A stretch of 18,268 bases of DNA from contig NZ_FUWK01000047.1 in assembly GCF_900167395.1 (NCBI RefSeq), forward strand, positions 1 to 18,268, in the 5' to 3' direction. The notes under the pieces were generated by a model. That model was not told the DNA's origin. It worked only from the letters and a program-made list of their open reading frames with translations, and did not search any database. Both the position numbers and the translations under genes were made by a program. The stretch is from Nitrosomonas europaea. Its GTDB lineage: Bacteria > Pseudomonadota > Gammaproteobacteria > Burkholderiales > Nitrosomonadaceae. Within the stretch, counting starts at the first letter, position 1, and the number at the start of each line of letters is the position of its first letter. Below are positions 6,051-17,845 of this stretch, one piece after another.

Positions 6051-6413
6051 TCAACTTCCTGCATCTGCCATATTACCGCGAAAGATGAAGTATACGGCGC
6101 CAAGGATGCATAATCCCGCCCAGAGGTAGTCGAGTTTGAGTGGTTCCTTCATGTAGAACAGGCTGAAAGGAACGAATATCGACAGGGTGATGACTTCCTG
6201 CAGGATTTTGAGCTGCCCGAGGGATAAAACATTGAACCCGATACGGTTTGCCGGTACCTGCAGCATATATTCGAAGAATGCGATTCCCCAGCTGATCAGC
6301 GCTGCTACCAGCCATGGCTTGGTACTCAGATCCTTCAGGTGTGCATACCAGGCGAATGTCATGAATACATTGCTGATGGACAGCAACCCGATGGTAAGTC
6401 CAATCTCGCGCAT
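6051..6413 (-). CDS. small DMT-superfamily membrane protein (DUF486, half-EamA, about 4 TM)
   Basis: The protein is 120 aa. NVFMTFAWYAHLK...WGIAFFEYMLQVPANRIG is typical of DUF486/DMT proteins. It lies 24 nt downstream of pgl on the same strand and is the last gene of the minus-strand operon. Confidence 0.6.
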   Translation of the reverse strand: MREIGLTIGLLSISNVFMTFAWYAHLKDLSTKPWLVAALISWGIAFFEYMLQVPANRIGFNVLSLGQLKILQEVITLSIFVPFSLFYMKEPLKLDYLWAGLCILGAVYFIFRGNMADAGS

Positions 6414-6437
6414 GGTGAAATCCGATGCCCTGTTTCG

Positions 6438-7124
6438 TTAATCCGTTTCGAACAATTCTACCGGTTTGAATTGCATGAGCCGGACAAACGGTATGTTCTG
6501 ATCGGGCGATTCGATGAGCCGATCAATTAATTGCCTTTTTTCTTTTCCTGTAATCACCAGAATGATGCGGTCGCTGTTGATGAGTGCGTGCAGACTCAGG
6601 CTGATACGTAAAGAGGGCGCTGCCGGGGGGGTAGCAGTCTGACACAGGCTGGTGGTATCGGGATTGAGGGCCATACCGGGAAACAGCGAGGCAATATGGC
6701 CATCTTCTCCCAGCCCGAGGATGACCAGGCTGAATGGCTGCGGTAATTCTGCCAGGCGTGCATCGATGTCGGTAATTGCCTGATCGGGATGGATATGCCC
6801 GGTTTTGAGAGCGATGAAATGAGGCTGTTGCTGCATATGTTGCAGGAAATGTTCGCGTACCAGTCGCTCATTGGACTGCTCGCTGGTCGGTTCGACCCAG
6901 CGTTCATCACTCAGCGTAATGAAAACTTGCTGCCAGGGAAGATCCATTTGCGCCAGCCGGGGAAGATAAACCACAGGTGTGTGTCCGCCAGGAACGACCA
7001 GGCTGGCTTTGCCGTATCGTTCGATTGCATTGCGCAGCGTTACGGTAACCGATTGTGCCAATGCTTCGGACAGTAGGGATAAGTCGCTGAAAGCGTGACG
7101 CTCGGCTAAATGGCTACTGGACAT
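6438..7124 (-). CDS. pgl: 6-phosphogluconolactonase (Pgl/DevB type, NagB/RpiA-like sugar-phosphate isomerase fold)
   Basis: Motifs seen are VPGGHTP and LGLGEDGHIASLFPG. At 228 aa it fits the family. It overlaps the upstream HAD gene by 19 nt. Confidence 0.8.
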   Translation of the reverse strand: MSSSHLAERHAFSDLSLLSEALAQSVTVTLRNAIERYGKASLVVPGGHTPVVYLPRLAQMDLPWQQVFITLSDERWVEPTSEQSNERLVREHFLQHMQQQPHFIALKTGHIHPDQAITDIDARLAELPQPFSLVILGLGEDGHIASLFPGMALNPDTTSLCQTATPPAAPSLRISLSLHALINSDRIILVITGKEKRQLIDRLIESPDQNIPFVRLMQFKPVELFETD

Positions 7125-7762
7125 AAATCAGGCACGATTTCGACTGATTCCGGAAAGGGGTTGTCATCGCCTGGACGGACCCGGCCAAGAAATGCAATCC
7201 CGTTCTGATGGGCACTTTCGTAATCAACCAGCGCGTCACCGATCATCAATACACGTTCGGGTACAAGCGGATAGGCGGACAGAATATCGGCCACCAGTGT
7301 TTCTTTCAGCCTGGGGGAACCGCGCACTTCGGTAAAATAGCGGGACAAGTCGCGCTGTTCGACAATTATGCGTAATTCGCTCTCCGGTGTACCGGAAGCG
7401 ACGAACAGCGGAATCTGATCCACCATTCTGTGCAGTAATGCTTCCGCACCTGCGACCGGCTGGCAGGAAATGACGGCGTTCATGACCAGTTCGGAGAATC
7501 GCCGATCCAGTTCCTGTTCCTCTTCTTTGGTAAGCGGAGGATAGTTCAGCAGGTTTTGCTGGAAGTAGTGAAATTTGAGGTAGCGCGACATACCGCCATT
7601 GGCGCGATGGTAGGTGACTGCAGCCTGTGCGATCGTTTCGCCATGGTGGCGGTACAGTTCAGCGAAGGCCTGCGCCTTGATGTCACCGGATTCCACGATG
7701 ACACCATCGAAATCAAAAATGATGGCCTGCCAGTAGTCAGCAGGGCGGGTTGCTATATTCAT
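7106..7762 (-). CDS. HAD-IA family hydrolase (beta-phosphoglucomutase / phosphoglycolate-phosphatase-like phosphatase)
   Basis: HAD motif I is present as IIFDFDGVIVES, followed by a cap-domain-length insert and motif IV as MIGDALVDYESA. The substrate cannot be read from the sequence. Confidence 0.75.
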   Translation of the reverse strand: MNIATRPADYWQAIIFDFDGVIVESGDIKAQAFAELYRHHGETIAQAAVTYHRANGGMSRYLKFHYFQQNLLNYPPLTKEEEQELDRRFSELVMNAVISCQPVAGAEALLHRMVDQIPLFVASGTPESELRIIVEQRDLSRYFTEVRGSPRLKETLVADILSAYPLVPERVLMIGDALVDYESAHQNGIAFLGRVRPGDDNPFPESVEIVPDLCPVAI

Positions 7763-8703
7763 GCCTGATTATCAGTGGAAGAGGGAGTCGTACCGCCTTC
7801 TTCGTTGCCATGACTGATCTGCTGGTAAATTTCCTGGATGCAGTCGAGCAATCCCTGGCCCAGATCGACATGTTCATTGAGCACGAGTTTGCGGCCGACA
7901 CGTGGTTGAAATGCATAAGGCGTGATCTGATAATGGTGCCCCGGTTTGGCCTGATCGTAATGCAGATCGACATTCCAGGGTAACATTTCTGAAATCATGG
8001 TCATGACATCGCGTATGCGCAGCTTTTCCTGCCCGGTCAGGATCAGGTGCCGGTTGGCAAATTCCGGGGCGAGAATCTGCACGCTCATCCGTGCAGCATC
8101 CTCGACGTGGATGTATTCCCTGATCGATTCTCCACTGCCACGATAAGTGATGGCACGCTGCTGTATGGCTTCGTGCAGCATACGGTAGATACCGTTCCGC
8201 CTGTCCGAACGCCGGCCGTACAATGATCCGTAGCGCAGGATGGTATATTCCAGTCCATAACGTTCGTGATAGGTTTCGGTGAAGCGTTCAGCTGCCTGTT
8301 TGCTGGCACGATAAAAAGAACCGGTTTCCGAATAGACATATACGCTGCTGGCAAAGATGAAGCGGCGCACTCCTGCAAGCCGGGACGCCTCGAGCGCATG
8401 CATGTTGCCGAGTACATTGATGCTGGCTGTACCGAGCGGGTTGTCATGGGCTTCATCGATATCGGCGATGGCCGCAAAATTGTAGACGGCAGCAGCGCCC
8501 TGAACAGCATTGGATACCTGGCTGATATCCATCAGATCGCCGATGATCATTTCCTGATCGGATCGCCGGAACGGGGAGGGGTTACGGTCGAACAGGCGTA
8601 CCTTGTAGCCCGCATTGGACAGGGCATCAGCGACATGGCTGCCCAGAAAGCCGCCTGCGCCAAGTACGACAGCCGTTTGTCCGGGTTGTATCGTTTCACT
8701 CAT
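7759..8703 (-). CDS. NAD-dependent epimerase/dehydratase (extended SDR)
   Basis: A Rossmann motif VVLGAGGFLGSHVADAL and the catalytic motif YRASKQAAE (YxxxK) are present. At 314 aa it fits the family. It has a 4-nt overlap with the HAD gene and an 8-nt overlap with the dehydrogenase gene. Confidence 0.8.
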   Translation of the reverse strand: MSETIQPGQTAVVLGAGGFLGSHVADALSNAGYKVRLFDRNPSPFRRSDQEMIIGDLMDISQVSNAVQGAAAVYNFAAIADIDEAHDNPLGTASINVLGNMHALEASRLAGVRRFIFASSVYVYSETGSFYRASKQAAERFTETYHERYGLEYTILRYGSLYGRRSDRRNGIYRMLHEAIQQRAITYRGSGESIREYIHVEDAARMSVQILAPEFANRHLILTGQEKLRIRDVMTMISEMLPWNVDLHYDQAKPGHHYQITPYAFQPRVGRKLVLNEHVDLGQGLLDCIQEIYQQISHGNEEGGTTPSSTDNQA

Positions 8704-9631
8704 CGATCAGACCTGCTTCGATCAATCCCTGCTTCAGATTTTCTGCAGCTTCGATCTCCATACGCTGCCGGGTTTCTCGCGCCAGTGAGCCGATATGGGA
8801 AGTCAGTATCGCCTGTTTACATTCGCATAAAGGCCCGTGATAGGGTTCCTGCTCAAAACTGTCCAGAGCAGCAGCTTCGAGATGGCCGGTATTCAGTGCT
8901 GCACACAAGGCAGTTTCATCGACCAGCCCGCCACGGGCGGCGTTGATGAGGATCGTTCCCGGTTTCATACGATCAATGGCTTCGGCATCGATCAAATAGT
9001 GAACTGCCGGGGAATAAGGCAAATGAAGGGTAACGAGATCAGCCTGTTCGAGCAGGGTAGTCAGTGCAACGAGTTCGACGCCGTCAGGCGCCAGTTGCAA
9101 ATGGGGGTCATGCGCGATGACCTGTGCGCCGAATGCCTGACATAATTTCGCAACTCGCCGTCCGATATGGCCGAGCCCGACGATGCCGACTGTGCGTGCG
9201 GCCAGCAGCCTTCCTTGTGAACGAGGCCATTCCCCCTGGCGTACGGAGCGGTCGATACGGTTGATCTGGCGCAGGCAGTCGAGCATCAGCCCCAGTGTCA
9301 GTTCTGCAACAGCCTGTGCCGGGGCCTCAGGTGTGTTGGAAACTTGGATGTTCAGCCGCCGGGCAGCTTCCAGATCGACATTATCCATGCCAGTGCCGCA
9401 GCGCGCGATGACGCGCAAAGCACTGGCGCTTGTCAGCACATGTTCCGTAAGCGGTTCGACTCCTGCCAGCAGGGCAACGGTGTCATTGCCCAACAGGGTG
9501 ATGATTTCATCTTCGGTGAGTTTGCGCTGGTAAGGATTGCCGGTGATGGTGAAACCTTGTGCGCGCAGCTGCTGTATGGCCGGATTATGATCGAAGCCGA
9601 AAGATGAAGTGGAAACGACGATTTTACTCAT
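8696..9631 (-). CDS. D-isomer-specific 2-hydroxyacid dehydrogenase (phosphoglycerate-dehydrogenase-like)
   Basis: GIVGLGHIGRRVAKL (NAD binding), LINAARGGLVDE and SHIGS (catalytic His region) are present. Its start overlaps the aldolase stop by 4 nt. Confidence 0.85.
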   Translation of the reverse strand: MSKIVVSTSSFGFDHNPAIQQLRAQGFTITGNPYQRKLTEDEIITLLGNDTVALLAGVEPLTEHVLTSASALRVIARCGTGMDNVDLEAARRLNIQVSNTPEAPAQAVAELTLGLMLDCLRQINRIDRSVRQGEWPRSQGRLLAARTVGIVGLGHIGRRVAKLCQAFGAQVIAHDPHLQLAPDGVELVALTTLLEQADLVTLHLPYSPAVHYLIDAEAIDRMKPGTILINAARGGLVDETALCAALNTGHLEAAALDSFEQEPYHGPLCECKQAILTSHIGSLARETRQRMEIEAAENLKQGLIEAGLIDE

Positions 9632-10389
9632 ACAGGCGCTTTGATGATGTTCAGATGGTTACGGCAGAGAGAATCGAGCATGCGGATATCCAGACTGTAT
9701 CCCAGAAAGGTGAAACCCTGTTCGATACGCTGTTGCAGCATGGCCGGATCGGGTTCGATGACATGAACTCCGCCTGCCTTGTGATGACGGATTCCGGCCT
9801 GGAGTATCTGCCGGATGGCCGCCTGGACATCAGGATGCTCCAGCTCACCCGGTCGTCCCATCGACCCTGACAAATCATAGGGGCCAATGATATAGGCATC
9901 GATACCGGGGGTGGACAGAATCGCATCGATATCTTCGATGGCCTGGATATGTTCGATCATCGCGATGACGACGGCGTTGTCACGCAACCATTGCCGATAT
10001 GCCTGAAAAGCTGAACCGTAGCCCTGAGCGCGTGCCAGCCCCACACCGCGGGTGCCTTCAGGCGGGTAATAAACGGCATTGACTGCAGCACGGGCATCTT
10101 CCGCGGATTTGATCATGGGTACCATGATCCCGCTTGCACCGGCGTCCATGACACGTTTGATCTGATCGGGGTGATTGGAAGTCAGCCGCACGATGGCCGG
10201 ACATTGCTGTCCATCCAGTACCTGAATGATGGCCTGTACTTCACTGAGTTCCAGCACACTGTGTTCAGTATCGAGCACGAGCCAGTCGAAACCGGCTTTG
10301 GCCATGATTTCGGCAATCGAGGGATGACCTAGGGTGATCCATGAACCGATGGTCAGTTCGTGGCGGGCGAGTCGGGTTTTTAATGACAT
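9628..10389 (-). CDS. HpcH/HpaI family class II (metal-dependent) pyruvate aldolase
   Basis: The protein is 253 aa. GSWITLGHPSIAEIMAKAGFDWLVLDTEHS, MVPMIKSAEDA, PEGTRG and IGPYDLSGSMG match 2-keto-3-deoxy-acid aldolases of the HpaI/GarL/RhmA type. Confidence 0.8.
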   Translation of the reverse strand: MSLKTRLARHELTIGSWITLGHPSIAEIMAKAGFDWLVLDTEHSVLELSEVQAIIQVLDGQQCPAIVRLTSNHPDQIKRVMDAGASGIMVPMIKSAEDARAAVNAVYYPPEGTRGVGLARAQGYGSAFQAYRQWLRDNAVVIAMIEHIQAIEDIDAILSTPGIDAYIIGPYDLSGSMGRPGELEHPDVQAAIRQILQAGIRHHKAGGVHVIEPDPAMLQQRIEQGFTFLGYSLDIRMLDSLCRNHLNIIKAPV

Positions 10390-10408
10390 GGGAATTCCGG
10401 TCAGTATG

Positions 10409-11167
10409 TCAGTATTTTCGGTATTCAGCCAGCAGCGGATCAGTGGCCATCAACCCTGCGACACGTATCAGATCAGCTTCGGTATCGACTGCCTGCGTGT
10501 CATGACTGGTTTCCACCATTCTGACATGATGGCCATGCTCCATCAGGCGCAGCATATCGATCGATTCAAGTTGTTCCAGCGGCGTGGGTGGCAGCTGACT
10601 GTATTCAATCAGGCAGGTGCGCGTAAATGGAATGATACATACCTGCTTGTAGACAGCAGTTGCGCCAAAGCCGCCGGGAGCCAGTGTCGGAATCGGCTGG
10701 CGGGTCATGTACAGTGCATTTCCCTGCTGATCCATGACGACCTTGATGGTATTGGGATTGCGAAAATCGGTTTCATCGTCGATACGTCGTGTCAGATTGA
10801 CGCATTCCAGTTCCGGATCAGTGTGGAAAGGTGCCACGGCGGTATCGATCATGGCAGGGTGAACCATTGGTTCATCTCCCTGCACCATGACGATCAGATC
10901 GGCATCGGTGTGTGCGACGGCTTCCGCGATGCGGTCGCTGGCCCGTTCGTGACTGTCGGAGGTCATGATGACGGGCGCTCCAAAGGCGGTTGCGGCCTGC
11001 CGGATCGTTTCATCGCAGGTGGCGATATAAGTCGCACTGAGCGACTTGCTCATAGCAACACGCTGGTAAACATGCTCCAGCATGGTGTACCCCAGCAGTT
11101 GGGCCAGCGGTTTGCCGGGAAAGCGTGATGAGCCCATGCGTGCCGGAATGATGGCGATTGTTTTCAT
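10409..11167 (-). CDS. KdsB-like 3-deoxy-manno-octulosonate (ulosonic acid) cytidylyltransferase
   Basis: From ATG 11167 the protein reads MKTIAIIPARMGSSRFPGKPL...VQGDEPM...NPNTIKVVMDQQGNALYMTR...LEQLESIDMLRLMEHG...VDTEADL. It is colinear with E. coli KdsB and has 252 aa. The 28 codons upstream in the listed ORF are not family-like. Confidence 0.8.
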   Translation of the reverse strand: MKTIAIIPARMGSSRFPGKPLAQLLGYTMLEHVYQRVAMSKSLSATYIATCDETIRQAATAFGAPVIMTSDSHERASDRIAEAVAHTDADLIVMVQGDEPMVHPAMIDTAVAPFHTDPELECVNLTRRIDDETDFRNPNTIKVVMDQQGNALYMTRQPIPTLAPGGFGATAVYKQVCIIPFTRTCLIEYSQLPPTPLEQLESIDMLRLMEHGHHVRMVETSHDTQAVDTEADLIRVAGLMATDPLLAEYRKY

Positions 11168-11351
11168 GATTGTGAATTCGGGTGGGTAACTGAATTTACA
11201 GAATGTAATGAAGCAAGTGGAATAGGTCCTGTCAGCAAGATGAATGAACACTGCTGTAAAGTGCCGGGTAGGAACGTTGTGTACTTTTATAATGATGCAT
11301 TTTTGCAGGTATCATATTTCCCCCGCCAATGCGTGGCATGATAACACAGCT

Positions 11352-12644
11352 ATGAAAGCCTTATTTTTTCTGCGCCACTATAACGATATCGATCATATAA
11401 CACCGGTTATCACTGCATGGGTCGAAGCTGGCCATACATGTGATGTAGTACTGATCGGGGCCGGCAAGTTTCGTCATGATTTCCGTGTCAGCTACCTGGC
11501 AAGTCTGGAAGGTGTCAGGGTAGCGCATATTCGGGAGTTGCTGGGAGGGTGGCTTTACGGCACCTGGCGGTTGCAGATGCTGTTGCTGACAGGAAATTTG
11601 CGCCGATCATTCATTGGCCCGCTCGTAAGCCGTCTGGCGGAGATCCATAGTGCTGAGCGGCGTAAACCATTGTGGCAAAAAGTTACCAGGATACTGCTGG
11701 CCCGCAGCTTCAAGGATGGGGAACAGGGCGTGTTGGCGTTCGACTGGATTGAACGTAATTCGGTCATTGCGACAGAGTGGGTGGAGACGATCGTTTCCAT
11801 GGCGCGTGACCGGGGAGTAGGCACGGTATCATTGCCGCACGGCGACAGCCCGCATGCCAATCAGTTGATTCGGCGGGGTGAGTGGCGGTTGGGACCGGAT
11901 ATGACCTTTTCAACTGCGCGCATTTTCGATCGGGTAGTGGTTCCAAACGAATTGTGTGCACAACGTTTCCGTCCGTTTCTGCCGGAGAATGCAATCGCCG
12001 TGCTTGGTTCCCCCCGTTTCAGTAAAAAATGGCTGGACAGGCTGACTGAATTGATGCCACCTTCGCCGTTGACTCCACCAGAGGATCGGCTCAGGATCGT
12101 GATATTTCTGAGAAAAGCAAACTTCACTACTTTCTGGGAGGAAGTAAGTGAGGTCATTCATCTGATCGCCGCTTTTCGTGATGTGGAAATCATCATCAAG
12201 CCACATACCCGCAGTGGCTGGAAACAGTCTCTGACACGCAGCAAATCACTGAAAAAACTGGCGAACGTAAAAGTGGCGGATGATTCCGTGCATTCCACCT
12301 ATCTCATGAACTGGGCAGATATATGTATCGACCTGGCAACTTCGGTGGTATTCGAAGCGATACGCTGTGGCAAGCCTGTGCTGGCAGCAGATTATCTGCA
12401 CGCCGGGCGCTCTGCCGCTGCTGTTTATATGCCGGAAACAGAATTACGTTGTCGGGATGATGTATATCAGAAAATCAGTGATGTTCTCGCTAAAGGTCGT
12501 GATGGGTTTTATGTGGAAGCACATCGGCAACGGTTCATCAGCGAAATGCTGGATGTCGGTGGGCAGGATGTATTGTCGCGATATGTGATGCTGCTGGAAG
12601 CCATTGGACAGGGGCAGGCAGAAAGTTTACTTCGGAAAAACTAA
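11352..12644 (+). CDS. hypothetical protein, possibly a GT-B-fold transferase (function not established)
   Basis: It spans 430 codons from ATG 11352 (MKALFFLRHYNDIDHITPV...), on the opposite strand from the KdsB-like gene. The C-terminal half has a beta-strand-PH-x-R element (IIIKPHTRSG) and DLATSVVFEAIRCGKPVL. These resemble the nucleotide-sugar-binding half of WaaA, KpsC, TagF and sialyltransferase-type GT-B enzymes, but I do not confidently recognise a family. Confidence 0.5.
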   Translation: MKALFFLRHYNDIDHITPVITAWVEAGHTCDVVLIGAGKFRHDFRVSYLASLEGVRVAHIRELLGGWLYGTWRLQMLLLTGNLRRSFIGPLVSRLAEIHSAERRKPLWQKVTRILLARSFKDGEQGVLAFDWIERNSVIATEWVETIVSMARDRGVGTVSLPHGDSPHANQLIRRGEWRLGPDMTFSTARIFDRVVVPNELCAQRFRPFLPENAIAVLGSPRFSKKWLDRLTELMPPSPLTPPEDRLRIVIFLRKANFTTFWEEVSEVIHLIAAFRDVEIIIKPHTRSGWKQSLTRSKSLKKLANVKVADDSVHSTYLMNWADICIDLATSVVFEAIRCGKPVLAADYLHAGRSAAAVYMPETELRCRDDVYQKISDVLAKGRDGFYVEAHRQRFISEMLDVGGQDVLSRYVMLLEAIGQGQAESLLRKN

Positions 12645-12671
12645 ATAAACGATGCAATCTTGCAGGGTGCG

Positions 12672-13453
12672 ATGGGTAATCTATTCTCGATTGGTTTTCT
12701 GAAAAACCTGGTGGTAGCAGGTTATGTAGTCAAGGGGGGTACTAAAACTGTTCGTGTCAGAGGCTATCCGATACGGTTGACGGTGGATCACTGGCGTGTA
12801 CTCAGACGTATTCGTACTTATTCCATCAAAGAACCGGATACGCTGGACTGGCTTGACAATATCGAGCCTGGTTCATGTTATTTCGATATCGGTGCCAATA
12901 TCGGCCAATACTCGCTTTATCCAGCCATAAAATTGGGTCATGACATTCGTATTTTTGCCTTTGAGCCGCAGAGTAATAATTACTATGCGTTGAATAAGAA
13001 TATTTATCTGAATGATTTGAAGGACCTGATTACCGCGTATTGTGTAGCGATAGGCGGTACAAACGGTTTCGATAAGTTATATGTACCCAAATTCATTCCT
13101 GGCGGAACCGTTCGCAATTCGGACAGGAATCCATAGATGCTATGCGAGCACCGACTTCCCATATTCAGGGAATGTTTGGCGTGACGCTGGACGATTTGTG
13201 CGGTAGATGGGGGTTTCCGTATCCCAATTATATTAAGATCGATGTCGATGGTATTGAAATCCCGATTCTTAAAGCAGCCACAAGTGTTTTGAAACACCCC
13301 AATCTTCAATCTGTCATCGTCGAATTAGGGACAGATGCTGAGCAGCAGGCGGCTTCGGATATCATGCAACAGGCCGGTCTGAAATTAAAGACAAAGACCA
13401 CCCGGAACTGGGGTGAAACATGTTGTTTGTTTGAACGGAATCCAGCGGCATAA
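12672..13453 (+). pseudogene. FkbM-family SAM-dependent methyltransferase, split by a frameshift near 13076-13136
   Basis: ORF 12660..13136 carries the FkbM N-terminal motifs CYFDIGANIGQYSLY and FAFEPQSNNYYAL. ORF 13142..13453, in a different frame, carries the C-terminal motif YIKIDVDGIEIPILKAA. The second frame is open back to 13076, so a single indel would explain the split. Confidence 0.7.
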
Positions 13454-13514: not shown

Positions 13515-14795
13515 TTGAGAAATCAGATTGTATTGAATTGGCGTGATCTGCTGGCAAAGTTTGCGCTGGTATTTTTTTGTTTCACACTGTGGCCAAAAGG
13601 GGTGATTTACTGGGGAATGGGTATGCTGGTTATTGCCTGGCTGGCAGATGGGGGGATATCCAGACTCTCCGATCTGATTAAAGAACCCTTAGCTCTGGGC
13701 GTCCTGTTGTTTTGCGGTGTATGGGTGCTTGGCCTGTTATGGAGCGATTCCGCAGTGATTTTCCAGGGAAAGTGGAGAAAATATTTTATCCTGTTGACGT
13801 TCATCCCTCTGTTCTCCCTTTTAAGCAGGGAACGTTTACCCTGGGTGACTGGAGCACTGCTTTGCAGTTATCTGGGTATGGTGATACTGGGCAGTTATCA
13901 ATGGGCAATGCAGGAAATGCAGGGAATTTCCTTGCTTGGCATGTCCTATTTACACTATTCGGCAGCCTTGGGAATTGGTGTCATTCTGGCGGTTTTTCTG
14001 GGTTGGGAAACATTATCGAGAGAAAAGAGATGGTTGTCGGTTCTGTCATGGCTGATAGCCATATTGCTGTTATTTCTCCAGTTCAATCAGAGTGCGAGAG
14101 GGATACTGCTTGCCACCCTGATGGCACTGTTACTGATGATCGTTTTGCGATACCGGGCGGAATGGAGAATGCTGACGGGCGGTTTGACTGCAATCATGGC
14201 CATGGTCATCTTGTTTGCCACCAGCAGTGATATTTTTCATGACAGGCTGCAGCAGGCTGGCACAGATTTGCGATCTTTCCAGCAAGGGGACTATCAAACC
14301 AGTGTGGGTTACCGGCTTGCAATGTGGGATGTCGGCCTGCATGGCATTGCTGAACATCCGTTGCTGGGACATGGCTCCGGTATGGCAAAAAAGTATTTTG
14401 ATGACAGCATCATCACTTATAAGCAGGGAATCTACAGAAATCTGCCGGAGTTTCAGGAAACTGCACATTTCCACAATGAATTGATCGAGATTGGTATGCA
14501 TCTCGGGTTGCTGGGTATACTGGCCTTCGTGTTTTTACTATGGTGCTGGTTTCAGATTTTCAGGCAAAACCGGATGGCCTTGTTAGGTAGTGCAATCGTG
14601 TGTTTCATTTGCATATCCGGATTGACTGATACTTTTTTGTTATACAGTGGAACTCCGCCATTTCTGCTGACAGTGACAGCCATAGCCGTTTGTTGGCGGA
14701 AATACAGGGAAGACCCTGACAGAATCGGGCAGAAATATACGAGCGGTGAGAGGAATGGAAATCAGAATCCGCAAATGTTTTTGATGAGTGCCTGA
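13515..14795 (+). CDS. O-antigen ligase / polymerase family protein (Wzy_C domain)
   Basis: This is a polytopic membrane protein with NQSARGILLATLMALLL, a large periplasmic loop, and AHFHNELIEIGMHLGLLGILAF (the H-x-x-N-E motif of WaaL/Wzy_C proteins). The start is uncertain: 13515 is a TTG without an obvious SD. Confidence 0.75.
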   Translation: MRNQIVLNWRDLLAKFALVFFCFTLWPKGVIYWGMGMLVIAWLADGGISRLSDLIKEPLALGVLLFCGVWVLGLLWSDSAVIFQGKWRKYFILLTFIPLFSLLSRERLPWVTGALLCSYLGMVILGSYQWAMQEMQGISLLGMSYLHYSAALGIGVILAVFLGWETLSREKRWLSVLSWLIAILLLFLQFNQSARGILLATLMALLLMIVLRYRAEWRMLTGGLTAIMAMVILFATSSDIFHDRLQQAGTDLRSFQQGDYQTSVGYRLAMWDVGLHGIAEHPLLGHGSGMAKKYFDDSIITYKQGIYRNLPEFQETAHFHNELIEIGMHLGLLGILAFVFLLWCWFQIFRQNRMALLGSAIVCFICISGLTDTFLLYSGTPPFLLTVTAIAVCWRKYREDPDRIGQKYTSGERNGNQNPQMFLMSA

Positions 14796-14825: not shown

Positions 14826-15488
14826 ATGAACCGGATAGTATTGATGATTGTTGACCCGATCATCGAACATTACATGCACACACTGGCGAGACGGTCTGAT
14901 CACCCGGTTCTCGATGAGATGGAAGCGTTTGCGCTGGAAAAAAGTTTCCCGATCGTCGGCAGGCTTGTCGGCATCTCGCTGGAGATTTACGCAAAAATGA
15001 TTGGAGCGCGCAGGGTTTTCGAGTTTGGCAGCGGGTATGGGTATTCTGCCTACTGGTTTGGCAGGGCAGTCGGGCCTGGTGGGCAGGTTGTCTGTACGGA
15101 TAGTAATCCGCTCAATCGGGAACAGGCGGAACAATACCTCGCTGCTGCCGGGTTGTGGGAGAGGGTGAGGTTCTGTACAGGCTATGCTCAGGACATATTT
15201 GGCCAGACAGATGGGAATTTCGATATCTGCTACAACGATGCCGATAAAGGGGGGTATCCCGATATCTGGCTGATGGCCCGAGAACGAATCCGCTCTGGTG
15301 GTTTGTATATTGCCGACAACGTATTGTGGCATGGCTGGGTCGCTGTGGAAGATTCTGCAGATGCCAAACCGGACTGGACAAAAGCAATCAGAGAGCATAA
15401 CCGGTTGATTTTGACAGACCCGGAGTTTGATGCCTTTATCAACCCAACCCGTGATGGCGTTATCGTGGCACGTAGAAAAATGGCATAA
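14826..15488 (+). CDS. class I SAM-dependent, cation-dependent O-methyltransferase (family 3, caffeoyl-CoA OMT-like)
   Basis: VFEFGSGYGYSAYWF (SAM motif I), YNDADKGGYP and IADNVLWHG (D/D/N metal ligands) are present. The start could be 14826 or ATG 14844. Confidence 0.8.
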   Translation: MNRIVLMIVDPIIEHYMHTLARRSDHPVLDEMEAFALEKSFPIVGRLVGISLEIYAKMIGARRVFEFGSGYGYSAYWFGRAVGPGGQVVCTDSNPLNREQAEQYLAAAGLWERVRFCTGYAQDIFGQTDGNFDICYNDADKGGYPDIWLMARERIRSGGLYIADNVLWHGWVAVEDSADAKPDWTKAIREHNRLILTDPEFDAFINPTRDGVIVARRKMA

Positions 15489-16776: not shown

Positions 16777-17845
16777 TTAACCAGGTTCAGTAACAGAGTC
16801 TAGTTTTGCAGCTTGTTTGAGTAACAAAACTTTAAGGTTCTGCCATTTTCCCCAGGCAGTCAGCAGTGTGCGAAGAAAGAAGGGAGTTTCCGGTGCGATC
16901 CAGATTTCTGTAACCTGTCTGTCTGCACGTTTCCAGCCTCGCAGCAGGATTCTGACTGCCGAGTACAAATTCAGATCATGGTTGTATATTTGCAGACTGG
17001 TTAACCGGCTTGAGCGTGCTGGTGTTAGCCAGTGAACATAGCCGCCATCGTGAAGAACCTGATCTATAGTACTGATAAGTTCTTCACCAAGATCTGTCAG
17101 TGCGCAGTTGGTTGTAAGTAACAGTAGGTTTTGCTGTGCTTTCGGGTAACGAGACAGATAAACAGCGCGGTTGTGCCGGGATAATGGGAAGCGATCATCA
17201 CCAAATGATCCCCCCTTTTTGTGGTGAATATGAGCTTCGGGGTGGACTCCGAAACGCCAGCCATTGAGATCAAGACGACGCCCAAGATCGATATCTTCGT
17301 AGTACCCGCGACCGAAGATCGGGTCAAATCCACCGATTGCGAGGAAAATATCGCGACGTATCAGGAAAGCATGTCCGCGTAAATAGTAGGTGCGGATATA
17401 GTTGCCGGGATACAGTGCATAACGGCCAAGGTCGAAATTGTCGTAACTGTTTCCTGCGGGAACAATGGCCGCCAGCTTCGGATCTGCGTCAAAAGCAGAG
17501 CAGAGCAGAGCAGAGGAGGGGCAGGATATTGTGTTTGACCTCAGTGTCAGAGTTGAGAATCAATACATAAAATGCATCAGACCGGCTGACAGCTGTATTG
17601 ACTGCTGTGCCGAAACCCTCATTCTTTTCTGCGTGAAAAACTTCCACACATGAGTAGGGCAGATGATCCAGCATTGCACGTGTTTCACTGTCAGATGCAT
17701 CATCCTGGATGAGTATCCTGTGTATGGATTTCCCGAGATGAGTAATGACGGAATCAATACAGCGCCTGGTTAGAACAGGTGCATTGTAAACCGGTATTAT
17801 GACGTCAATACGTTTTGAGCAAGATCGTGCTGTTTCGTCCAGCAT
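16777..17845 (-). pseudogene. family 2 glycosyltransferase, reading frame interrupted at a pentanucleotide repeat (candidate phase-variable gene)
   Basis: The N-terminal ORF 17489..17845 has IDVIIPVYNAP...ILIQDDASD...NEGFGTAVN...LILNSDTEV (GT-A/GT2 motifs). I translated the minus strand by hand. The frame offset by +1 is open from 17490 down to 16777 and continues the family: DADPKLAAIVPAGN...GHAFLIRRDIFLAIGGFDPIFGRGYYEDIDLGRRL. That frame has no ATG, GTG or TTG until 16968, which is why the ORF track shows only 16777..16968. Confidence 0.8.
17494..17515 (-). repeat. pentanucleotide tandem repeat (GCAGA)4.4 on the + strand, equal to (CTCTG)n on the coding strand of the GT2 gene
   Basis: The sequence reads directly as a-gcaga-gcaga-gcaga-gcaga-g at 17494..17515. 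The stop codon of the upstream GT2 ORF (17489-17491) lies 2 nt past the repeat. Confidence 0.9.

Follow-up and report, generated by a model that had tools for sequence, protein, structure and literature searches.

The window analysed here, an 18,268-nucleotide stretch of contig NZ_FUWK01000047.1 (assembly GCF_900167395.1), is part of the chromosome of Nitrosomonas europaea ATCC 19718 (AL954747.1, about 1.81-1.83 Mb) and carries a minus-strand operon in which a cytidylyltransferase annotated as KdsB is encoded next to a class II pyruvate aldolase. Five genes of this operon, termed g1 to g5, are read as a biosynthetic module for a cytidine monophosphate (CMP)-activated 2-ulosonic acid other than 3-deoxy-manno-octulosonate (Kdo), a reading that the sequence makes slightly more probable than its denial. 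The broader proposal is that the module represents a widespread pathway, not described so far, to a new acidic sugar activated with CMP, in which the aldolase replaces a phosphoenolpyruvate (PEP)-dependent synthase and the cytidylyltransferase comes from a distinct subfamily annotated as KdsB; its chances of being right and of being wrong appear equal. Every Nitrosomonadaceae ammonia oxidiser sampled carries the module, which also occurs in Desulfovibrionaceae, Omnitrophota and other lineages. In N. europaea the operon consists of the following genes, in the order g1 to g7 (SDR, short-chain dehydrogenase/reductase; HAD, haloacid dehalogenase):

10409-11167, minus strand: g1, KdsB/KpsU-like cytidylyltransferase of the non-Kdo Q181/I185/D210/M211 subfamily, 252 amino acids (PF02348 CTP_transf_3, 2e-46)
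9628-10389, minus strand: g2, HpcH/HpaI class II (metal-dependent) pyruvate aldolase (PF03328, 1e-36)
8696-9631, minus strand: g3, D-isomer-specific 2-hydroxyacid dehydrogenase, 311 amino acids (PF02826 and PF00389)
7759-8703, minus strand: g4, extended SDR of the NAD-dependent epimerase/dehydratase family (PF01370 Epimerase, 7.5e-44)
7106-7762, minus strand: g5, HAD-IA phosphatase (PF13419 (HAD_2) and PF00702)
6438-7124, minus strand: g6, 6-phosphogluconolactonase (pgl; Glucosamine_iso; TIGR01198 passed)
6051-6413, minus strand: g7, small DMT_6 (DUF486) membrane protein (PF04342, 5.6e-47)

All seven open reading frames (ORFs) begin with ATG, and their starts agree with public gene calls on six contigs. 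From g1 to g7 the junctions are a 19-nt gap, a 4-nt overlap, an 8-nt overlap, a 4-nt overlap, a 19-nt overlap and a 24-nt gap; the overlaps suggest that g1-g7 are co-transcribed. The first-pass annotation of this DNA had described exactly this seven-gene arrangement, and both the ORF list and the public gene calls reproduce its ORFs and all six junctions, while Pfam and NCBIfam confirm the domains it had assigned. Its further claim that KdsA, KdsC, KdsD and NeuB are missing is borne out as well, as none of their domains occurs among the window ORFs scanned with Pfam and PF03102 is not found in the window. A pattern scan of the operon detected no convincing internal terminator, the matches being no more numerous than in shuffled sequence, and scans of the window for Rfam families and tRNAs gave no matches. 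Recent horizontal acquisition in N. europaea was considered and rejected, because the GC content and third-position GC content (GC3) of g1-g7 equal those of the flanking genes. Identical copies of the aldolase protein are encoded on AL954747.1 and several related contigs.

The cytidylyltransferase g1 is a member of the KdsB/KpsU family, as had been supposed at the outset, and its residue signature and genomic context support the accompanying idea that it acts on another substrate. The best solved structure for g1 is the E. coli capsule enzyme KpsU (1GQ9). The protein passes the broad KdsB subfamily models NF009905 (300.7 against a cut-off of 255) and NF003952 (288.8 against 193), falls below the kdsB equivalog cut-offs of TIGR00466 (145.2 against 155.2) and NF003948 (168.5 against 281), and reaches 29.6 on the PseF model, whose cut-off is 205.7. 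Active-site motifs were aligned for g1, KpsU, three KdsB structures and 26 relatives; residue numbers are those of E. coli KdsB, checked against a published study (PMC12199768) with an E. coli KdsB sequence. Residues R10, K19, Q98, D100 and D235, which serve cytidine triphosphate (CTP) and Mg, are kept in g1 and its subfamily. Four other positions are altered in g1 (H181Q, Y185I, E210D and Q211M), where the RH(I/V)GIYAY motif of Kdo enzymes has become KQVCIIPF and LEQLR has become IDMLR. H, Y, E and Q stand at these positions in KpsU and in the KdsB proteins of H. influenzae, V. cholerae and C. burnetii, and E210 and Q211, being invariant there, are presumably residues of the Kdo pocket. A 2025 study of KdsB (PMC12199768) reports that the 5-OH of Kdo is held by Y185 and Q98, places H181 in the active site and states that 5-deoxy-Kdo does not serve as a substrate.

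The two signatures are discrete: among 288 relatives, 211 have the g1-type signature and 56 the Kdo type, and the two groups overlap in overall identity to g1. A control is provided by a Kdo-type protein that is 46-49% identical to g1 and lies in a canonical kdsB-pyrG-kdsA-kdsD-kdsC-lapB operon (locus L098); a Kdo-type protein of similar identity thus sits in a kds operon, and the signature therefore tracks genomic context. Neither kdsA, kdsC or kdsD nor kps capsule genes were found in the window or in the module loci. No canonical kdsB occurs within the module loci examined, and no genome-wide kdsB search was made. On plasmids and phages, the relatives found are all of the Kdo type, with identity below 40%. 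As judged from its residues, g1 is a member of a discrete subfamily without the Kdo contacts and not a normal CMP-Kdo synthetase (EC 2.7.7.38). The hydrophobic replacements in its pocket hint at a substrate less hydroxylated at C5 or in the side chain.

Current annotation does not reflect this division. The models NF009905, NF003952 and TIGR00466 do not separate the Q/I/D/M type (P0132, P0272, P0463, P0277 and P0128) from genuine H/Y/E/Q CMP-Kdo synthetases (P0281, P0205 and KpsU), and some g1-type proteins other than g1 narrowly pass TIGR00466. The NCBI KdsB models are blind to the two types, and therefore g1-type proteins are named KdsB throughout public annotation. Some g1-type cytidylyltransferases carry N-terminal extensions that bring their total length to 363-411 amino acids (P0133, P0127 and P0444). 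In P0133 (locus L094, 8001-9092) the extension is a PRD domain, and the surrounding locus, with LytR_cpsA_psr and Com_YlbF genes, looks Gram-positive.

One alternative holds that the operon makes ordinary Kdo for a capsule-type polymer, using a second route that does not depend on PEP. Along this route the HAD phosphatase would dephosphorylate arabinose 5-phosphate (A5P), the aldolase would join D-arabinose to pyruvate, and the KpsU-like enzyme would activate the product. This would suit the closeness of g1 to a capsule enzyme, its best solved relative, and its passing of NF009905, which is KpsU's own best model; pgl could feed the pentose phosphate pool, and a Kdo aldolase activity (EC 4.1.2.23), which would here run in reverse, is known from older enzymology. 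The explanation is nevertheless unlikely, because it conflicts with the loss of the Kdo contacts in g1: four positions that are invariant in all genuine CMP-Kdo synthetases examined are replaced across the g1 subfamily, and one of them, Y185, binds the 5-OH of Kdo. In addition, Kdo-type relatives of similar identity are found with kdsA, kdsD and kdsC rather than with aldolases, and the two dehydrogenases of the operon would be left without a role.

The aldolase g2 matches PF03328 with 126.7 bits (gathering score 25), and its best solved structures are GarL (1DXE) and HpaI (4B5S), with 144-157-bit similarity. In phmmer alignments to 4B5S and 1DXE, the residues corresponding to HpaI D42, H45, R70, E149 and D175 are identical in g2; we take Arg70 to be catalytic and Glu149 and Asp175 to be metal ligands, and His45 and Asp42 presumably have functional roles too. 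The protein fails all four equivalogs, namely HpaI, two GarL models and 2-keto-3-deoxy-L-rhamnonate aldolase, scoring 194 against 369 on TIGR02311, 181 against 407 on TIGR03239 and 146 against 441 on NF007521. The dehydrogenase g3 is closest to the catalytic core of the phosphoglycerate dehydrogenases 3DDN and 1WWK. It consists of the two catalytic-core domains, lacks the regulatory ACT/ASB domains and lies under every NCBIfam equivalog cut-off (TIGR01327, 249 against 454); control locus L098 encodes a genuine SerA, which has PGDH_inter and ACT domains.

The extended SDR g4 resembles uridine diphosphate (UDP)-sugar 4-epimerases, and its translation contains the GxxGxxG and YxxxK motifs. Its best solved structures, 6WJB and 6WJ9, were deposited as epimerase/dehydratase-family proteins and are presumably the UDP-N-acetylglucosamine (UDP-GlcNAc) 4-epimerase PelX. 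A link to hopanoids, suggested by a weak HpnA match of g4, was dropped for want of supporting context. The translation of g5 shows the HAD DxD motif (DFDGV), and the protein weakly matches beta-phosphoglucomutase family and 6-phosphogluconate phosphatase models. The product of g6 passes TIGR01198 (162.2 against 124.45); among NCBIfam equivalogs, none covers any of g1-g5.

Conservation within the family delimits the module. A scan with one genome per species returned 80 loci with aldolase identities of 75-97%, all of them from Nitrosomonadaceae. The order g1-g6 is unchanged in essentially all of these roughly 80 loci, so the arrangement is not due to chance. In Nitrosomonas, pgl is always the final gene of the unit, translationally coupled to g5 throughout the genus (the 19-nt overlap in the window), and the genes 3' of it vary by species (AIPR, PhoX-like, tRNA synthetases). 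In Nitrosovibrio (L086) the unit stops at the HAD gene with no pgl after it, and pgl is also missing from module copies outside Nitrosomonadaceae. Among 86 Nitrosomonadaceae loci, the DMT_6 gene g7 was detected only in L001-L010 and L012, which form the europaea/eutropha clade. These distributions limit the conserved unit to g1-g5; in Nitrosomonas alone, pgl has been added at its 3' end with translational coupling, and g7 is a recent add-on of the europaea/eutropha clade. The pathway of seven genes originally envisaged is therefore not upheld, and the parallel once drawn between g7 and the ArnE/ArnF flippase subunits loses its basis with the restriction of DMT_6 to one clade.

The same five families recur far outside Nitrosomonadaceae. 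Distant relatives were found by an exhaustive HMMER search with g1 (identity 45-57%), after which their genomic contexts were inspected, and the full set of five core families, with identities of 35-56%, occurs in Oleidesulfovibrio alaskensis G20, a Candidatus Omnitrophota metagenome-assembled genome (MAG) and one further MAG. The Omnitrophota MAG (L092) carries them in one glycan locus, with identities of 49% for the aldolase, 49% for the cytidylyltransferase, 46% for the 2-hydroxyacid dehydrogenase, 52% for the extended SDR and 41% for the HAD phosphatase. The further MAG (L093) has a compact aldolase-SDR-cytidylyltransferase-dehydrogenase-HAD operon, flanked by ATP synthase genes and dapF. 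In O. alaskensis G20 (L096) the order is aldolase, SDR, cytidylyltransferase, hexapeptide acetyltransferase, dehydrogenase and HAD (35-56% identity), and the module adjoins a NeuB/NeuA-type cluster, as it does in L095. Four of the five module genes are found in each of L095 and L099, and orthologues of g5 occur in L092, L093, L096 and L099. The member most conserved across phyla is the g4 SDR (52% identity in the Omnitrophota copy, 56% in the G20 copy), and the g3-type 2-hydroxyacid dehydrogenase is the one that most constantly accompanies g1-type cytidylyltransferases.

The composition of g1-type contexts varies to some extent. Eight of ten informative contexts, Nitrosomonadaceae being counted once, include an HpcH aldolase whose catalytic residues are intact. 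In L090 a NeuB-like gene replaces the aldolase, and L088 has no typical HpcH aldolase and encodes a pyruvate-kinase-barrel protein with a weak HpcH match; elsewhere, Gfo/Idh/MocA and IMPase proteins replace the dehydrogenase and phosphatase. The contexts of the module are glycan loci containing NeuB/NeuA-type genes, glycosyltransferases (GTs), Wzy_C, hexapeptide acetyltransferases beside the cytidylyltransferase and ATP-binding cassette (ABC) exporters. Because five unrelated families recur jointly across phyla in differing gene orders, there is strong evidence that they form one functional module; the neighbourhood check that had been suggested thus shows g1-type cytidylyltransferases and HpcH aldolases co-occurring across phyla. 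Two of these loci share further details: directly upstream of the aldolase, L092 (5412-7238) and L096 (5739-7550) encode an ABC exporter of about 600 amino acids in which ABC_membrane and ABC_tran are fused, and in both a hexapeptide acetyltransferase gene is close to the cytidylyltransferase.

Gene order, domains, intact catalytic residues, cross-phylum synteny and the altered pocket of g1 are observed, and they permit a pathway to be proposed in which each chemical step, and likewise the fate of the product, is predicted from the encoded enzymes. The aldolase g2 would form the carbon chain from pyruvate and an aldose or aldose phosphate, with hydroxypyruvate as a possible alternative donor. 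The phosphatase g5 would strip the phosphate and so render the reversible aldol step effectively irreversible, as KdsC and the phosphatase of 2-keto-3-deoxynononic acid (Kdn) 9-phosphate do in PEP-dependent routes. The oxidoreductases g4 and g3 would tailor the precursor or the product; one option for g3 is to provide hydroxypyruvate, or a unit derived from glycerate, starting from 3-phosphoglycerate. The cytidylyltransferase g1 would then couple the anomeric hydroxyl to CMP at the expense of CTP, pulling the pathway forward. Neighbouring glycan-assembly proteins (a GT-B-fold protein, a GT2 glycosyltransferase, Wzy_C and methyltransferases) may place the CMP-sugar on lipopolysaccharide (LPS) or another surface polymer, and in Nitrosomonas pgl may raise the supply of a precursor derived from the pentose phosphate pathway.

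The earlier suggestion that an aldolase-made 2-keto-3-deoxy acid is activated with CMP by the KdsB homologue gains from the cross-phylum co-occurrence and from the non-Kdo subfamily of g1, with its chemistry still a prediction. The companion argument from missing Kdo steps fares less evenly: KdsC is indeed lacking, but g5, as a HAD phosphatase, may be its functional analogue. Several products were considered, including Kdo isomers, ulosaric acids resembling 3-deoxy-lyxo-heptulosaric acid (Dha), 2-keto-3-deoxyglucarate, 2-ketogluconate, and deoxy or O-methyl variants, and the sequence data do not tell them apart. The view that the gene set matches no characterised pathway agrees with the sources searched: no curated model or searchable paper describes it. 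Full-text search found no description of the set, subscription-journal literature lying outside that search, and the SugarBase preprint on new CMP-ulosonic acids makes no mention of aldolases.

The constancy of g3 invites another explanation, in which the keto acid arises by oxidation. Here g3 would oxidise C2 of a phosphorylated aldonic acid, for example 6-phosphogluconate, the product of Pgl; the HAD enzyme would remove the phosphate, and the resulting 2-keto-aldonic acid (for example 2-ketogluconate or an SDR-made epimer) would be CMP-activated. The aldolase would be accessory, for instance in providing carbon or in epimerising through a retro-aldol and an aldol reaction. Such a scheme accords with the 2-hydroxyacid dehydrogenase being the most constant g1-type neighbour even in loci without a typical HpcH aldolase, with the closeness of g3 to dehydrogenases of phosphorylated 2-hydroxy acids, with the weak match of g5 to a 6-phosphogluconate phosphatase model and with the translational coupling of pgl to g5 throughout Nitrosomonas. 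It is still improbable, because a condensing enzyme is near-universal in these contexts and pgl is absent from the module outside Nitrosomonas: the intact aldolase in eight of the ten informative contexts, and the NeuB-like gene in another, are hard to explain unless a carbon-carbon bond is made. Moreover, we know of no CMP-activated hex-2-ulosonic acids.

That there is no dedicated pathway at all, g1 being a housekeeping CMP-Kdo synthetase packed with unrelated genes in one transcript, is very improbable: databases do name g1-type proteins KdsB, and pgl and a nearby glucokinase gene are of housekeeping type, but Betaproteobacteria, Desulfovibrionaceae, Omnitrophota and further MAGs bring the five families together in differing orders, which unrelated genes would not do, the idea conflicts with g1 because its Kdo-contact residues are lost, and a g1-type enzyme lies in a LytR_cpsA_psr/Com_YlbF locus typical of Gram-positives without Kdo-LPS.

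Several points weigh against a module for a CMP-activated acid other than Kdo. KpsU, a CMP-Kdo synthetase, remains the protein that g1 most resembles, and g1 passes the broad KdsB subfamily models of NCBI. The most constant partner of g1, g3, has no obvious place in a simple aldolase-phosphatase-cytidylyltransferase scheme. As nucleotide sugars are the normal substrates of extended SDRs, g4 might serve another sugar, and pyruvate aldolases of the g2 family are best known from catabolism. Among the neighbouring genes, the one for the GT-B protein is missing from N. eutropha-type loci and from modules outside Nitrosomonadaceae, and the FkbM and GT2 genes look degraded in N. europaea.

Comparison with known systems places the proposed pathway between several of them. 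Like the CMP-Kdo pathway (KdsD, KdsA, KdsC and KdsB; KpsF and KpsU), it would close with a CTP_transf_3 enzyme whose CTP/Mg residues are the same, it contains a phosphatase of the HAD superfamily, and its output would go to surface glycan assembly. Unlike that pathway, the module contains neither an A5P isomerase nor the PEP-dependent KdsA and presumably relies on a class II pyruvate aldolase; its phosphatase is HAD-IA, whereas KdsC is HAD-IIIA; two dehydrogenases are integral to it; and in g1 all of H181, Y185, E210 and Q211 are replaced, the first two having documented roles with Kdo. With nonulosonic acid clusters (NeuC/NeuB/NeuA/NeuD and those for pseudaminic acid (Pse), legionaminic acid (Leg) and Kdn), the module would share the preparation of an aldose, its joining to a three-carbon keto-acid donor and the subsequent attachment of CMP, and it shares SDRs, hexapeptide acetyltransferases and methyltransferases as tailoring partners. 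The two differ in the condensing enzyme, which would be a pyruvate-using HpcH aldolase in the module and is the PEP-using NeuB in those clusters, and in the cytidylyltransferase, g1 being of the KdsB/KpsU lineage and theirs of the NeuA/PseF/LegF types. The catabolic aldolases GarL, HpaI and YfaU/RhmA have the same fold as g2 and all of its catalytic residues, but g2 lies under their equivalog cut-offs and in a biosynthetic glycan context rather than in a degradation operon. N. europaea is an obligate chemolithoautotroph.

If the proposal is correct, it adds a new biosynthetic logic, combining a pyruvate aldolase, a phosphatase and the pull of CTP, to the few known CMP-sugar pathways, and it points to a novel acidic sugar as a surface-glycan component of environmentally important bacteria, among them nitrifiers, sulfate reducers and members of uncultured phyla. 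It also exposes a systematic annotation problem, as hundreds of proteins named 3-deoxy-manno-octulosonate cytidylyltransferase have a pocket incompatible with the known Kdo contacts. Two of the organisms that carry the module, N. europaea and O. alaskensis G20, are in culture, and the proposal is directly testable in them; transposon mutant libraries exist for the latter. Its enzymes could serve the chemo-enzymatic synthesis of rare ulosonic acids and CMP donors.

The genes beyond g1 are of kinds that agree with the product going into a surface glycan: GT-B, FkbM, Wzy_C and O-methyltransferase genes and, in most Nitrosomonas, a GT2 gene. The features are as follows:

11168-11351, no strand: divergent intergenic region with presumed promoters, a 184-bp gap between the start of g1 and the start of the upstream plus-strand gene
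11352-12644, plus strand: GT-B-fold protein, 430 amino acids (AlphaFold2 model), syntenic in most Nitrosomonas
12660-13453, plus strand: FkbM-family methyltransferase, split in two ORFs (PF05050 on both halves)
13515-14795, plus strand: Wzy_C (O-antigen ligase/polymerase-like) membrane protein (PF04932, 5e-21), syntenic across Nitrosomonas
14826-15488, plus strand: class I S-adenosylmethionine (SAM)-dependent O-methyltransferase (Methyltransf_3; PF01596, 1.7e-25), syntenic across Nitrosomonas
17489-17845, minus strand: GT2 glycosyltransferase remnant, 118 amino acids, N-terminal part, away from the cluster

Within 11168-11351, promoter searches gave weak sigma-70-like matches in numbers not above those in shuffled sequence. 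The FkbM gene is broken in N. europaea by a TAG at 13134-13136 into ORFs of 158 and 103 amino acids and is intact in N. oligotropha (254 amino acids; L023, 4880-5644), so that the N. europaea copy is probably a pseudogene or a strain-specific disruption. FkbM genes also adjoin the module in L095 and in the context of P0140. In other Nitrosomonas a GT2 of about 354 amino acids lies between Wzy_C and FkbM (for example L023, 3829-4893). The glycan-assembly arm looks partly degraded in the N. europaea strain, because its GT2 is a 118-amino-acid remnant away from the cluster. Beside this remnant, ATCC 19718 has an rve-family transposase gene (L003/L004).

The GT-B protein has no Pfam match, and a profile search of its family against PDB sequences gave no matches. 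An AlphaFold2 model built from a 37-orthologue alignment reached a predicted local distance difference test (pLDDT) score of 80 and a predicted template modelling (pTM) score of 0.82, against a pLDDT of 43 from the single sequence. Foldseek matched the model to UDP-GlcNAc 2-epimerases, which are its best structural matches (template modelling (TM) scores 0.55-0.59), to GT1 glycosyltransferases and to a capsule polymerase. All 37 orthologues weakly match the C-terminal part of NF046086 (27 bits; cut-off 200). This is the BFO_1060 family, and BFO_1060 is homologous to the transferase Tanf_01245 of Tannerella forsythia (PMC5420450). Knock-out of Tanf_01245 showed it to be needed for the addition of a Pse derivative, and the Tanf_01245/TFUB4_00887 family is genetically required for Pse and Leg addition; the CMP-activated nonulosonic acids occur in the cells and are probably the donors (PMC5420450). 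The GT-B neighbour resembles these transferases in the match to the C-terminus of the model and in its predicted fold, and differs from them in that the match is very weak, the best structures are UDP-GlcNAc 2-epimerases and the family is confined to Nitrosomonadaceae, being absent from other module hosts. The model makes the protein a candidate CMP-sugar transferase or an enzyme resembling nucleotide-sugar 2-epimerases. N. eutropha-type loci (L008-L012) keep g1-g6 without the GT-B and FkbM genes, and therefore the presumed transferase is not an obligate partner of the module.

Members of the GT-B family show some variation of their own. In Nitrosovibrio (L086, 4397-6859, minus strand) a homologue is fused to a GT2 domain in a single 820-amino-acid ORF, which suggests that both act on the same glycan. 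Some family members carry the UniRef label CDP-glycerol glycerophosphotransferase, and Nitrosomonas cryotolerans has two paralogues (P0328 and P0381) with the near-adjacent locus tags 101838 and 101840.

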